In this document: positions 3,215 to 62,232 of the stretch, one piece after another | Layout of the letters: each line of letters begins with the position of its first letter | Position numbering within the stretch: the first letter of the stretch is position 1 | Origin: an uncultured Actinomycetes bacterium | GTDB taxonomy: Bacteria; Actinomycetota; Thermoleophilia; Gaiellales; JAICJC01 | Length of the DNA: 64,000 bases | Reading direction: 5' to 3' | Assembly (NCBI GenBank): GCA_963703275.1 | Contig: OY969804.1 | Location: 211,154-275,153 of the forward strand | Position numbers and translations under genes: made by a program | The notes under the pieces: generated by a model | Told to the model about the DNA's origin: nothing | Database searches by the model: none | The model's input: the letters and a program-made list of their open reading frames with translations, nothing else

Positions 3215-3282
3215 TGAGATGATTGATCGGTAACTCCGCGCGCGCCTGGACGCCCGCAGGTCGTCTGTGGGTGGTTTCTGGT

Positions 3283-3459
3283 GGCGCTGCGGCTGCGAAC
3301 CGTCGCATCGCGCGTGAGGTGTCTGCGTGATCGCAGACACCTCACGACCGCCTCAAGGCTCCGCCTTGAGGCTTCTCGGTCGCGCCCATACGCTTAACCG
3401 GTATGAACGCTCCCTGCGTCCTTGCGCTGCTCGGTTCTCGCCGCCCAGGACATCACGGG
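3283..3459. repeat. About 177-bp structured dispersed repeat, copy 1
   Basis: About 90% identical by manual alignment to 43071-43246; three internal hairpins plus pairing ends. Confidence 0.9.
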
Positions 3460-3481
3460 AGCTACCGATCAGTCATCTGGG

Positions 3482-4936
3482 CTAGCGGAACAGCGAACTG
3501 CTGGCCGTGCGGGCGAGGTCGATCAGGGGCGCCGGGACGATGCCGAGGACGAGCGCCGCGAGCGCAGCCGCCGTCGCGGCGCCGGCCGCGAGGCCGTGGC
3601 CGGGCATGGCCTTTGCCTTCGGCACGGCCACCTCGCGGTCATACAGCGCGAAGGGCACGCGCAGGTAGTAGACCAGGCCGACCATGGTTGCGATCACGCC
3701 CGCGACGGCGAGGTACGTCTGCCCGTTCTGGACAGCGGCGGAGAAGACGTAGAGCTTGCCCAGGAAGCCGCCGGTGGGCGGGAACCCTGCGAGCGAGAGC
3801 ATGCACACGAGCATCGCGCCCCCGAGCAGCGGGCGCGTGTAGCCCCACCCGCCGAAGTCGGATACCAGCACCGGCCGGCCGATCTCACGCTCGCGCACGG
3901 CGACGATGCCGAAGGCGCCCAGGTTCATGGCGCCGTACACCGTCAGGTAGTACAGGAGCGCCTGCGTGCCGAGGGCGCTGTGTGCCGCGACCGCGGTCAG
4001 AAGGAAGCCGGAGTGGCCGACGGTGGAGTACGCCAGCATGCGCTTCACGTTCGACTGGCGCAGCGCGCCCAGGTTCCCGATCACGAACGAGGCGATGATG
4101 ATCGCGGCCAGGCCGATCTGCCAGACGTCGGACTGGCGCGGGAACGCGGTCACCAGCACCCGCAGGGCGAAGACGAGCGCAACCACCTTGGTGGCCGCCG
4201 ACATGAAGGCGGTCACCGGAGTCGGCGCGCCCTGGTACGCGTCCGGCGTCCACATGTGGAAGGGCGCGGCGTTGGCCTTGAACCCGAGCCCGACGATCAC
4301 CATCGCGAGTCCCATCAGCACCAGCACGTCGTGCGAATCGCCCTGAGCGAGGCCCGCCCGGATGCGGTCGAACTCGAGCTGGCCGCTCGCGCCGTAGGTG
4401 AGCGCCGCGCCGTAGAGCAGGAACGCCGCGCCCACCGATCCGATGATGAGGTACTTGAGCCCGCCCTCGAGCGACAGCACGTCGTCGGTATCGATTGCGA
4501 CCAGCACGTACAGCGCCAGCGAGAACAGCTCCAGGGCGACGAACGCGGTCACGAAGCTGTTCGACACCGCGAGCAGCGACATCCCGGCGGTCGCCGTCAG
4601 AAGCAGGACGTGATACTCGACGCTGCGCTCGCGCAGGTCGCCCATCCCCCACGAGTACGCCACCGCCACGAGCGCCGACACGTAGATGAGCATGCGGGCG
4701 CCCTCGCCGAACGCGTCGATCCGCAGGGTGTGGTCAAACGGCGCCCGCGCGGCGTCGTGGAAGGCGGCCCCCGCATAGACGGTGGCGGCGGCGAGGGCGA
4801 TCGCCGTGGCCGCCGCCGCAAGCCACCGGGCCTGCTTGTCGGGCAGGAAGACCCCCACCACGAGCAGCACCGCCGCGGTGCCGAGCAGGATGATCTCGGG
4901 GCCGATCGCCGTGAACGAGATGGGGATCGTGTGCAT
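3482..4936 (-). CDS. nuoN: NADH-quinone oxidoreductase subunit N
   Basis: Intact 484 aa; ALELFSL, LKYLIIGS, FKANAAPFHMWTPDAYQGAP, KRMLAYS. Confidence 0.95.
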   Translation of the reverse strand: MHTIPISFTAIGPEIILLGTAAVLLVVGVFLPDKQARWLAAAATAIALAAATVYAGAAFHDAARAPFDHTLRIDAFGEGARMLIYVSALVAVAYSWGMGDLRERSVEYHVLLLTATAGMSLLAVSNSFVTAFVALELFSLALYVLVAIDTDDVLSLEGGLKYLIIGSVGAAFLLYGAALTYGASGQLEFDRIRAGLAQGDSHDVLVLMGLAMVIVGLGFKANAAPFHMWTPDAYQGAPTPVTAFMSAATKVVALVFALRVLVTAFPRQSDVWQIGLAAIIIASFVIGNLGALRQSNVKRMLAYSTVGHSGFLLTAVAAHSALGTQALLYYLTVYGAMNLGAFGIVAVREREIGRPVLVSDFGGWGYTRPLLGGAMLVCMLSLAGFPPTGGFLGKLYVFSAAVQNGQTYLAVAGVIATMVGLVYYLRVPFALYDREVAVPKAKAMPGHGLAAGAATAAALAALVLGIVPAPLIDLARTASSSLFR

Positions 4937-43013: not shown

Positions 43014-43070
43014 CCCCAGCCCCCGCGCGCCCGGCCGCCGCCCACGGCGGTGGAGAGGCAGCAGACTGGC

Positions 43071-43246
43071 GGCGCTGCGGCTGCGAACTGTCGCCTCGCG
43101 CGTGGTGCGTCTGCGTAATCGCAGACGCACCACGACCGCCTCAAGGCTCCGCCTTGACGCTTCTCGGTCGCGCCCATACTTGAACCAGTATGAACGCTCC
43201 CTGCGTCCTTGCGATGCTCGGTTCTCGCCGCCCGGGCCATCACGGG
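43071..43246. repeat. About 176-bp structured dispersed repeat, copy 2
   Basis: Direct copy of 3283-3459 with compensatory stem changes. Confidence 0.9.
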
Positions 43247-43263
43247 GATTGGGGATAACCCAT

Positions 43264-43656
43264 CTAGGCCTCCCATGCTCCGACCTCGTAGGCCGCCCCC
43301 ACGGGCGCGCCGATAACGATCAGCGTGGTCGGCGTGGCGGTCGACTCGAACGTGCGCCTGACCGCGGGCTCGCAGGCGACCATCCCGCCCGCGGGCACGG
43401 TGGTGCGCTCGCCGTCGAGCGTTGCCGCCACCTCGCCGGCGTGGACGAAGTAGAGCTCCTGCTGGCCGGACTCCGTCTCGTCGTGCTCGGGGATGAGCAC
43501 CTTCCCGGCGTCCTTGGTGACCGCGTTCACGCCGAATGCGGTGATGCCGAAGTGGTGGCGGACTGACTTCCACGTAGCCGGCCAATCGGGCTTGACGGGC
43601 GGAATCTCGTTCACCTCGTCGATCTGCCAGCCGGCGCCCTTCGCTGCGACGCTCAT
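43264..43656 (-). CDS. Cupin-like protein
   Basis: HFGITAFGVNA, EHDE...QELYFV; AGGAG SD. Confidence 0.75.
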   Translation of the reverse strand: MSVAAKGAGWQIDEVNEIPPVKPDWPATWKSVRHHFGITAFGVNAVTKDAGKVLIPEHDETESGQQELYFVHAGEVAATLDGERTTVPAGGMVACEPAVRRTFESTATPTTLIVIGAPVGAAYEVGAWEA

Positions 43657-60655: not shown

Positions 60656-60689
60656 GGACGTGGCCGGGAGACGAGCCCCGGCCACGTCC
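60656..60689. terminator. Hairpin between convergent genes
   Basis: GGACGTGGCCGGG-N8-CCCGGCCACGTCC, 13-bp stem. Confidence 0.6.
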
Positions 60690-60696
60690 AGCGCGG

Positions 60697-61188
60697 TTAC
60701 GGCGGTTGGGCCAGCCAGCGGTGTTGGGTGTGCCAGCGTTGGATGGTGCGGCGGCTGGGTGGGTTGGCGGGGCAGTTGGCGTAGCGGGTGTGGACGGCGC
60801 GTGTGAGTTGGGCGGGTGTGGCTCCGGTGGCGTAGCGGTGTTCGAGTTGGTGGCGGAGGTCGGGCCAGGCGTAGCTGCCCGGCCTGCGCCGCTTTGGGGT
60901 TTGGCTTTTGAGGTGGTCGAGGTGGCTGGTGAGGGCGCGGTCGCGGGCTTGGGTGAGGCAGTCGTTCGCTTTCCAGACGCCCATGAGGGTGCGGACGAAG
61001 TCGCGTCCGCCGCGACGGGTTTGGAAGGCGGGGCTGGCGTGGTCTGCGCACAGCCACACCGAGACGCGATGGCTGAGTTGGAGGCGGCGGGTTTTGCCGC
61101 GGGTGCGATCAACGCAGATCGCGCACACCGGCTGTTTGACCGGCACGTTTCGGGCTTTGTACAAGGTCGGCGGGGCTTGCCAGGGCAT
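60697..61188 (-). CDS. Orphan protein with CxxC...CxxH motif and C-terminal HTH-like segment
   Basis: VCAIC...LCADH; PSRRTIQRW; C/A-rich coding strand; alternative start TTG at 61164. Confidence 0.6.
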   Translation of the reverse strand: MPWQAPPTLYKARNVPVKQPVCAICVDRTRGKTRRLQLSHRVSVWLCADHASPAFQTRRGGRDFVRTLMGVWKANDCLTQARDRALTSHLDHLKSQTPKRRRPGSYAWPDLRHQLEHRYATGATPAQLTRAVHTRYANCPANPPSRRTIQRWHTQHRWLAQPP

Positions 61189-61250
61189 CGGGGGAGTGTG
61201 GCGTGGTGGGTGTTGCGTGTGGGTGGCGGGGTGTGGCGAGAGTGTGGGGG

Positions 61251-61385
61251 AACTTCAAATGACACCTGCTCCACACGCCAAATGGCGTGTCCCAGGGTGG
61301 CCTCCGGAGGGCGGGCCAGAACTCGGGCGGAGGGGACATCCAAACCTCAAATGACACCTGCTGCACACGCCAAGTGGCGCGTCCC
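61251..61385. repeat. Two 43-bp direct repeats with internal palindrome, period 92 bp
   Basis: 61251-61293 and 61343-61385, 4 mismatches; ACACGCCA-NN-TGGCG(T/C)GT core. Confidence 0.85.
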
Positions 61386-61416
61386 GGGCCAGGGCTGCCG
61401 GCGTCGACGGCCACCC

Positions 61417-62232
61417 TTACCCCCCGGCCACGTCCCGCCGCAGAAAGATGAGGTACGCCCCGACGCCGAGCGGCACGGCATACACGGCGCACACCCAGGC
61501 GGCGCGGCCGATGGGCACCCAGTCGGTGGGCACCTGGAAGAACCCCTGCCAGGCCTGGAACTGGGTCGTGAGCAGATACGGCTCGAGGCCGCCGAGGCCG
61601 GGCAGGATCCCGACGAGCTGCATCAAGAGCGCCGCCATCAGCGTGCCGACGACGGCCGCCGCGCTGTTTCGGGTGACCGCCGAGAGGAAGAGCCCGATGC
61701 ACACCACCGCGAGCGTCGGCATCAGGTAGACGGCGAAGCTGCCGGCGACCAGCACCAGGCCGCGCTGGGCCGAAACCTGCGTCCCCGAGAGGCTGGTGAA
61801 GCCGTTGAAGCCCGACTTGGCCGTCCCGGCGATCAGCGCGACTCCGCCCATCAGCACCAGCGCCAGCAGCGCGTAGGTGGCGGCCGCGAGCAGCTTCCCG
61901 ACGAAGATCTGGCCGCGGTCGAGCGACCGGGTGAAGATCGTCTTGAGGGTGCCGTTGTGGTGCTCGGAGGCGATGATGTCGCCGGCCACGAGCGCGGTCA
62001 CGAGCGGGAACAGCCAGATCGAGGCGAACAGGAGCAGCACGAGCGGGATGGCCAGCCCGGACTCGCGCACGTACTTGCCGAAGGCGACGTCGTTGGGCGA
62101 GCCGTTCTGCAGCGAGAGCGCGGTGACGAAGATCAACGGGACGGCTGCGGCAGCGCCCAGGCCGAGGTAGGTGCGCTTCTGCGACGCGAGCTTGCGCAGC
62201 TCCCATCGGTATGCGGTGAAGAAGGTCGGCAT
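61417..62232 (-). CDS. ABC transporter permease
   Basis: GDIIASEHHNGTLKTIFTRS...GKL; multi-TM; TGATG coupling. Confidence 0.88.
   Translation of the reverse strand: MPTFFTAYRWELRKLASQKRTYLGLGAAAAVPLIFVTALSLQNGSPNDVAFGKYVRESGLAIPLVLLLFASIWLFPLVTALVAGDIIASEHHNGTLKTIFTRSLDRGQIFVGKLLAAATYALLALVLMGGVALIAGTAKSGFNGFTSLSGTQVSAQRGLVLVAGSFAVYLMPTLAVVCIGLFLSAVTRNSAAAVVGTLMAALLMQLVGILPGLGGLEPYLLTTQFQAWQGFFQVPTDWVPIGRAAWVCAVYAVPLGVGAYLIFLRRDVAGG

Follow-up and report, generated by a model that had tools for sequence, protein, structure and literature searches.

A compact cassette of a predicted zinc-containing helix-turn-helix gene and paired palindromic sites in a Gaiellales genome, with recurrent loss of synonymous G

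We analysed a 163-codon gene and its upstream repeats in a 64,000-nucleotide stretch of DNA (the window; contig OY969804.1, positions 211,154 to 275,153, assembly GCA_963703275.1) from an uncultured bacterium of the order Gaiellales. These are abundant soil actinobacteria, almost all of them uncultured, and to our knowledge their regulatory and mobile DNA is essentially undescribed. Throughout, G000 denotes the source genome (3.79 Mb), G003 to G044 the related genomes, and L001 the locus of the 163-amino-acid gene. The features of this locus are as follows:

60697..61188, minus strand: coding sequence of 163 amino acids, supported by the open reading frame (ORF) listing, homologues, invariant residues, the ratio of nonsynonymous to synonymous substitution rates (dN/dS) and an AF2 model; the parts of its product are a putative zinc module (C22/C25/C47/H50), two long helices and a C-terminal three-helix helix-turn-helix (HTH) domain (~104-155)
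61195..61200, minus strand: -10-like hexamer CACACT, 6 nt 5' of the ATG, with no Shine-Dalgarno sequence between the two
61189..61250, minus strand: conserved promoter-proximal region, C-rich and G-poor, with an ACCCAC core and the family's degenerate GTCAC-N6-GTGAC palindrome, from a 61-locus alignment
61251..61296, minus strand: proximal paired-site module, with half-palindromic sites at 61278-61285 and 61255-61262 and a spacing of 23 bp
61343..61388, minus strand: distal paired-site module, 92 nt upstream of the proximal one and 89% identical to it
60656..60689, no strand: hairpin with a perfect 13-bp stem, between the convergent stop codons of the 163-amino-acid gene and an FAD oxidase gene

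A preliminary description of this DNA, made from its letters, had taken the gene for an orphan, which it is not. The word-indexed protein search returned 381 homologues at E<=1e-3, nearly all of 158-166 amino acids and all unnamed or "hypothetical", the exhaustive search yielded 303 representative clusters at 50% identity, and the source genome itself holds three copies. No family for the protein was found in Pfam, NCBIfam, PHROGs or PADLOC (0 families in the latter two, with 5 members tested); the best cosine in the ESM Atlas was 0.79, to unnamed clusters, and 17 longer relatives tested carried no extra Pfam domain. Homologue loci come from records of Gaiellales or Thermoleophilia soil metagenome-assembled genomes, apart from two short contigs labelled otherwise. 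Among 41 related genomes, 30 possess the gene, including all 24 other genus genomes searched (presence by family, source genome not counted: 24/24, 4/4, 1/4, 0/4 and 0/4), with 1 to 15 matches per genus genome, truncated and frameshifted copies included. The dN/dS ratio lay between 0.06 and 0.26 in 19 of 20 pairs and was 0.54 in the remaining pair. One unpublished genome, G015, contributes 2 of the 61 loci (L020 and L063) to the upstream alignment, tree, dN/dS and hexamer counts, and is included in the genome counts for the gene, synteny, empty site and pair pattern; no conclusion rests on it. Judged from sequence, this is an undescribed family of predicted small zinc-containing DNA-binding proteins, largely confined to Gaiellales, although the general kind to which it belongs is known. 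It stands outside Pfam, NCBIfam, PHROGs and PADLOC and yet has definable parts, namely a predicted zinc dimer module and an HTH.

The product carries CxxC at residues 22-25, CxxH at 47-50 and PSRRTIQRW at 144-152, just as first described. Alignment of 44 diverse homologues revealed 15 invariant residues (C22, C25, L46, C47, H50, G61, W72, S105, W108, G122, P144, T148, R151, W152 and R157), among which are all four ligands of the putative Cys3-His site, invariant in 44 of 44, which suggests that the protein binds zinc. The AF2 model (mean pLDDT 86) comprises a beta-hairpin (33-47), two long helices (53-74 and 80-96) and a C-terminal three-helix domain, whose predicted HTH helices span 109-120, 125-135 and 146-155 at a pLDDT of ~88-95. 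Against the PDB, Foldseek gave no match at E<=0.001 for either of the two models. Structural relatives were found only for the C-terminal domain, and all of them are HTH DNA-binding domains: residues 100-163 matched the SETMAR DNA-binding domain (Z 5.8, root-mean-square deviation (rmsd) 2.7 over 53 amino acids), followed by Mos1 (Z 5.7), TnsB (5.3), a small terminase (5.2), IstA (5.1) and Tc3 (4.9). The transposase- or terminase-like character that had been proposed for the C-terminus is thus borne out by SETMAR, Mos1, TnsB and the small terminase (Z 5.2-5.8), and the modelled domain is a homeodomain-like three-helix HTH at the level of the fold only.

The predicted protein resembles several known systems in part and differs from each in the remainder. 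As in the N-terminal DNA-binding domains of transposases (SETMAR, Mos1, TnsB, IstA) and in Paired-type homeodomain-like HTHs, residues ~104-163 superpose over 52-60 residues (Z 5.1-5.8, rmsd 2.7-3.9), and one of the 44 family members touches the Pfam helix-turn-helix model HTH_38 (E 0.0014), which we take to be the IS30-type model. Unlike transposases, however, the family protein has no catalytic domain, either of its own or in a neighbouring ORF, and no terminal inverted repeats, and its single HTH is C-terminal and joined to a putative zinc dimer module. Regulators of the IS1 InsA type share with it an N-terminal Cys-rich zinc motif followed by an HTH, a small size and, if it binds as proposed, repeats by the gene's own promoter; in contrast to InsA, it has no Pfam IS1 match, is about twice as long, bears a helical hairpin between the two parts, is not followed by a transposase frame, and has direct paired palindromes on its upstream side only. 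A likeness to lambda Xis, which binds head-to-tail repeats, lies in the recognition-helix motif, the only one to give sequence-level hits (E 0.69 with a PDB profile; Pfam Exc in 3 of 44 members, best E 0.0049), none of them significant; unlike Xis, the family protein lacks a beta-hairpin wing, because it ends ~8 residues after the recognition helix.

For the N-terminal module, a different reading had to be weighed, in which it would be a His-Me finger (HNH-type) nuclease and the gene a free-standing, homing-endonuclease-like element with a C-terminal HTH. The layout of an HNH domain with a C-terminal HTH is known from I-HmuI-type enzymes. The cassette does occupy intergenic slots between housekeeping genes, a setting to be read beside background passages on free-standing homing endonucleases (PMC2988022, PMC2790892). 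As in Endonuclease VII, McrA and the Cas9 HNH domain, CxxC...CxxH frames a beta-hairpin and a helix, and such nucleases recur as the top structural matches of the N-domain, albeit weak ones (VcaM4I Z 4.1, McrA 3.6, AceCas9 HNH 3.3, TagI 3.3, GeoCas9 HNH 3.0); HNH domains took ranks 1, 3, 4 and 8 of the wide search at no more than Z 3.3-4.1, and the Nme1Cas9 HNH and P1 Ref, presumably an HNH enzyme, appeared in a second search. There is in addition a weak Pfam Endonuclease_7 match (PF02945; E 1.4, 9.3 bits, residues 15-41). All these Z values are nevertheless below 5, a range that is common by the tool's own account, the 9.3 bits compare with a cut-off of 23.6, far below the family threshold, and against HNH families 0 of 44 members reach E 0.1. 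At position 40, where the general base would be expected, 31 of 44 members have His and the others Y, F, N or L; once H50 is taken as a zinc ligand, no conserved Asn, Asp or His is left for the catalytic metal, and no other polar residue near C47-H50 is conserved. Because H40 is unconserved and no metal-binding Asn or His is conserved, we do not file the protein as an HNH enzyme, and we regard the nuclease reading as very improbable. The preliminary description had likewise seen no DDE, HUH or HNH motif, and the domain-library searches agree in that they gave no match to such families.

A further point against the nuclease reading is that the same N-terminal surface is the predicted dimer interface. 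Homodimer prediction scored 0.85 (the model's own confidence) versus 0.09 for the best control, and in the tool's calibration 20 of the 30 solved homo-pairs reached this mark, compared with 1 of the 23 solved single chains. Three runs had at least 94% of contacts in common, with a partner pLDDT of at least 80. The predicted interface involves residues 2-10, 20-28, 42-50 and 55-77, that is the zinc module and the first long helix, and leaves the HTH domains free. The N-terminal zinc module is thus predicted, by modelling, to make a homodimer.

Alignment of the 170 nt upstream of 61 genus copies delimited a conserved region of ~110 nt in the family. A hexamer NANNNT occurs 4-10 nt before the start in 57 of the 61 loci (37 at 6-7 nt; 27 reading CACACT), as opposed to 17 of 61 in a control window shifted 12 nt upstream, and an SD-like 4-mer (Shine-Dalgarno) in 0 of 61. 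Since a -10-like hexamer lies near the start and a Shine-Dalgarno sequence is missing, the mRNA is probably leaderless; this spacing without a Shine-Dalgarno sequence is the arrangement that passages of two reports describe for actinobacterial leaderless genes (PMC3898074, PMC4633059). A literature search on Gaiellales leaderless promoters found nothing specific, and the sigma-70 and intrinsic-terminator scans returned 0 sites each. Going upstream from the hexamer, a C-rich stretch with the ACCCAC core is followed by two palindrome-like sites 23 bp apart, and in most loci the GC skew across the 80 nt upstream is -0.2 to -0.6. The 43-bp repeats singled out earlier correspond to two copies of this module (61251-61296 and 61343-61388); the paralogue L002 and the G004 orthologue have three. 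Every family gene has one to three modules, located 65-330 nt upstream, on that side only and in direct orientation. The proposed tie between the gene and its adjacent repeats held, as the repeats are copies of the upstream module: a profile hidden Markov model built from the 61 loci recognised this region immediately ahead of the gene in 75 of the 77 further loci whose upstream DNA reached 130 nt or more (74 hits full length), a result that is not an independent test because the model was built from the same genus. Between protein clades, the site sequence shifts in step with the recognition-helix residues. A GC-rich hairpin element further upstream of the repeats was considered as a genome-wide repetitive extragenic palindrome (REP) and rejected, as the genome has one truly alike copy within 5 mismatches. 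Rfam gave nothing at E<=1 for the cassette locus except a chance SorX fragment, and nothing at gathering score for the whole window.

Sites of this kind also occur away from the gene. The decamer GCCAATTGGC is present 28 times in the source genome versus 3.4 expected, sites of its class form 18 intergenic clusters, and of the 28 spacings between neighbours 23 equal exactly 23 nt; a literature search for the decamer gave unrelated primer matches only. A relaxed pair pattern yielded 22 hits in the source genome and 0 with the reversed control. Extending this to the related genomes revealed that (i) 21 of 41 contain the pair pattern, (ii) all 21 of these possess the gene, (iii) none of the 11 genomes without the gene shows it, and (iv) the reversed control is 0 in 41 of 41. 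Six gene-bearing genomes of a divergent subclade lack GCCAATTGGC-type sites, their gene copies having a different upstream palindrome. This class of paired palindromes, found only where the gene occurs, thereby offers a candidate protein-and-site pair for biochemistry.

The settings of these sites are varied. Directly upstream of recO lie four palindromic sites at 23-nt spacing (G000:C1:1339987-1340080, L165 488-581), with a TACACT hexamer 6 nt before the recO ATG, and the number of site pairs at this orthologous locus is 2 in G000, 1 in G004, 3 in G005, 1 in G019, and 0 in both G009 and G017, the latter having an extra ~890 bp there without a family gene. Upstream of secA, the source genome shows one site pair and then a relic of the family promoter (G000:C1:1058626-1058712, L169), and in other genomes an intact family gene sits directly upstream of secA (L070, L072 and L074). 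Further clusters lie between the paralogue L003 and coaBC, and between L002 and an OsmC gene. The number of sites per genome ranges from 0 to 30 within one genus, and 13 of the 18 clusters of the source genome fall at 0.77-1.58 Mb, on one side of the cumulative GC-skew maximum (~1.5-1.6 Mb; minimum ~9 kb).

This clustering brings to mind MatP and its matS sites, and the family proteins might be chromosome organisers that mark a region through ~20 palindromic sites rather than acting at promoters. A predicted dimer, sites that in some cases are not at promoters, and a cluster-rich stretch adjoining the skew-defined terminus would all suit such a role. The sites are, however, on one side of the terminus only, their number varies from none to 30 per genome in a single genus, the six genomes mentioned above have the gene without this site type, and many paralogues per genome together with pseudogenes would be unexpected in a core organiser; we consider this reading improbable.

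The interpretation that we prefer, and to which we assign an even chance of being right, is that L001 is the resident copy of a compact cassette whose product is an autoregulated, zinc-dimerised HTH protein binding paired palindromes. What the data establish is the family with its invariant residues, the folds at the stated confidences, the make-up of the cassette, its synteny and duplication, and the nature of the skew; DNA binding to the paired sites, autoregulation, leaderless expression and zinc binding are here all inferred. Two subunits would pair via the N-terminal Cys3-His module and the helix that follows it, the dimer would present its two C-terminal homeodomain-like HTHs to one palindrome of ~10 bp, and each of the paired palindromes in a module, with their 23-bp spacing, would be filled by one dimer. 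The protein would most likely control its own leaderless promoter, because one to three modules lie upstream of every family gene, and family proteins probably also sit on the solitary paired sites elsewhere in the genome. Gene, promoter and modules together behave as a compact cassette of ~0.75-0.85 kb, which as a rule is passed on vertically, as L001 has been, and now and then is copied into another intergenic site, homogenised through gene conversion, or left to decay.

The history of the copies is consistent with a mostly vertical cassette. Relatives retain the order FAD oxidase, gene, ABC permease: oxidase and gene fall within one contiguous alignment in G004, G009, G044, G043, G003, G041, G042 and G024, and are less than 400 bp apart on one contig in G019, G017 and G010; in some genomes an aldo/keto reductase-like ORF, named from its translation alone, lies between gene and permease. 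Because this flank order is retained in at least 11 related genomes, with which the gene diverges along, the L001 copy is an old resident, contrary to the earlier suggestion that it was recently acquired. The other two copies of the source genome are L002 at 768.7 kb, ~500 kb from L001 (90% amino acid identity), and L003 at 1582 kb, between rpoZ and coaBC (55%). The genes flanking the three loci (FAD oxidase, ABC permease, OsmC, CoaBC, RpoZ) include no neighbour in common. The L002 locus is occupied in G000 and G004 but empty in G005, where the flanks are 68 nt apart versus 896 nt in G000; the segment common to L001 and L002 measures 820 bp, from the distal module to the stop codon. L002 is, on comparison of these sequences, a lineage-specific insertion of the cassette.

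In G004, each of the two copies resembles the other more closely than its own G000 orthologue, a sign of gene conversion. The L001 orthologue of this genome (G004:C3:1147339-1148158, L024) has a 1-bp insertion, its coding sequence being otherwise nearly identical to the second copy, L004; this points to gene conversion and subsequent decay. A third module and a UUCG-type hairpin are found in the G004 orthologue and in L002 and are deleted at the 163-amino-acid gene locus, and the alignment shows that the hairpin at 60656..60689 is missing from the G004 orthologue; with this hairpin absent from the G004 orthologue, and the third module and UUCG-type hairpin absent from L001, the locus has been rearranged at both ends. 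The hairpin at 60656..60689 is likely a bidirectional terminator. A 14-17-nt part of it duplicates the end of the permease coding sequence, which lies upstream of the cassette (61422-61438). The resulting direct repeat (60676-60692/61422-61438) was tried as a target duplication and rejected, since it consists of the conserved permease 3' end and of the hairpin that G004 lacks.

These observations also bear on a rival explanation, namely that the protein is the trans-acting component of a mobile repeat system, in which the cassette would be the autonomous form, the solitary palindrome pairs would be derivatives resembling REPs or miniature inverted-repeat transposable elements, and the protein would recruit or perform the spreading. 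In its favour are the 1-15 matches per genome in one genus, damaged ones included; the 820-bp duplicate, which runs exactly from distal module to stop codon and is seen in G000 and G004 but not in G005, whose site is empty; the copy between rpoZ and coaBC; the secA locus, with a family gene in other genomes and a site with a promoter relic in G000; the module number of 2, 1, 3, 1, 0 and 0 at one orthologous locus in six genomes; the arrays between convergent genes; the concentration of 13 of 18 clusters within 0.77-1.58 Mb; and the likeness of the HTH to transposase DNA-binding domains. The comparison that comes to hand is REP elements and bacterial interspersed mosaic elements (BIMEs) with their REP-associated tyrosine transposases (RAYTs), where, as here, palindromic modules form intergenic arrays of variable number, also between convergent genes, and are tied phylogenetically to one small, module-bearing gene. 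Unlike a RAYT, the family protein has no HUH/Tyr (Y1) transposase match, its modules are one-sided and direct rather than inverted on both sides, and there are tens of copies instead of hundreds. Searches of Pfam, NCBIfam and PHROGs gave no DDE, HUH, serine or tyrosine recombinase match in the protein, and the neighbouring ORFs likewise have no catalytic domain. At the L001 and L002 cassettes no terminal inverted repeats, target-site duplication or catalytic domain were found, the sites are on one side of the gene only, the 14-17-nt flanking repeat having been accounted for above, and most copies belong to old syntenic paralogue groups under purifying selection. A role of the protein in mobility is possible, and we hold this explanation to be unlikely.

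The strand composition of the gene, already pointed out in the preliminary description, proved to be a separate and recurrent property of some copies. The plus strand is G/T-rich over the gene and 60 nt upstream (the string quoted earlier is found at 61204-61238, just 5' of the start codon); at 60700-60999 the GC skew is +0.41 and the AT skew -0.45, and in flanking genes the GC skew stays within about +/-0.1. Expressed as (G+T-A-C)/500 over the 3.79-Mb genome (standard deviation 0.064, 99.9th percentile 0.32), L001 scores 0.364 and ranks sixth; the top of this ranking is a run of 1108 A's (G000:C1:514835-515942), presumably an assembly artefact or placeholder. On the coding strand, the third codon position has a GC skew of -0.59 and an AT skew of +0.71, the first a GC skew of -0.27 and the second one of -0.01, whereas the lowest third-position GC skew among 1162 long ORFs of the genome is -0.32. 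Four-fold sites are occupied by C/G/A/T at 66/18/14/1.4% in the skewed copies L001, L004 and L021 taken together versus 47/44/4.5/4.3% in the genome, and A makes up 74% of two-fold purine codons in these copies versus 6%. Relative to six unskewed relatives, and counting only codons with the first two bases identical, third positions changed G->C 128 times (reverse 19), G->A 55 times (5) and T->C 30 times (5). The skew is, from these codon counts, an avoidance of synonymous G, and to a lesser degree of T, and not a matter of amino-acid content, which was rejected as its cause on account of the missing GC skew at the second position.

The skew of L001 evolved in place, as none is seen in its syntenic G009 and G019 orthologues. 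Horizontal transfer was rejected as its source, given the unskewed same-locus orthologues and a gene tree that groups L001 among them, and so was a replication-strand effect, copies 1 and 2 lying on opposite strands of the same replichore and both being skewed on their own coding strand. Across the family tree, no fewer than five distinct clades contain copies with a skew of -0.3 to -0.6, and these are often recent duplicates within a genome; L003 is at +0.38. Such repeated purging of synonymous G in one gene family is an unusual codon-level feature. Predicted mRNA folding is ~40% weaker in the skewed copies (-0.30 vs ~-0.50 kcal/mol per nt), and passages of two reports state that Rho prefers C-rich, G-poor, unstructured RNA (PMC9160355, PMC6144790). 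Our leading guess is that the G loss results from selection on the transcript, for example on Rho sensitivity or lack of structure, rather than from mutational bias, and the excess of G->C over G->A at four-fold sites speaks for selection; the speed of the change speaks for mutation. If the loss is selected, it would point to mRNA-level control of leaderless genes, via structure or Rho; if mutational, to a strand-specific copying intermediate. The latter could be pictured as part of a selfish system of binder and site in Gaiellales, in which an autonomous ~0.8-kb cassette encoding only a zinc-dimerised HTH protein helps solitary modules to spread, expand and contract, and in which the strand-specific G loss of recent duplicates is a scar of the copying route (such as a single-stranded or RNA intermediate) and not of selection. 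We would rate this as a long shot, less probable than the mobile repeat system.

Returning to the autoregulated cassette, several points weigh against it. The genomes compared are kin and not independent samples, so that the co-occurrence counts overstate their support. At least 3 of the 18 site clusters (805.7, 931.3 and 1292.5 kb) lie between convergent 3' ends with no promoter there, and therefore regulation cannot account for every site. Site pairs of the L001 type are found solely upstream of copies 1 and 2, in an array at 1.29 Mb and, once, upstream of recO, and single sites of this type are not enriched in the source genome. As to the protein, the structural matches do not rise above a modest level (Z <6) and are confined to a three-helix domain of a common type, and the N-terminal module, which modelled alone reaches a pLDDT of 80, is without a confident structural relative. 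Finally, selection on synonymous sites would have needed to be quick: ~45 of ~70 third-position G's were replaced over a period in which the adjacent gene diverged by ~10%, a speed that fits a local mutational process as well.

Two further observations were made outside the cassette. A repeat of ~200 bp, probably the "177-bp element" of the preliminary description, is present twice in the window (3278-3482 and 43066-43269, 39.8 kb apart; 90% identity over 114 nt and 84% over 87 nt) and matched nothing in Rfam at gathering score. A few other genes of the source genome (G000:C1 ~2548351, 2304151, 2026501, 370401, 397351 and others) have a coding strand that is likewise C/A-rich and G-poor. Among them are two large Thr/Ser-rich proteins, a channel-like ORF in its C-terminal part and, judged from their translations, a regulator-like and a repeat-rich ORF; some of these genes are grouped at 2.29-2.34 Mb and 0.37-0.40 Mb.

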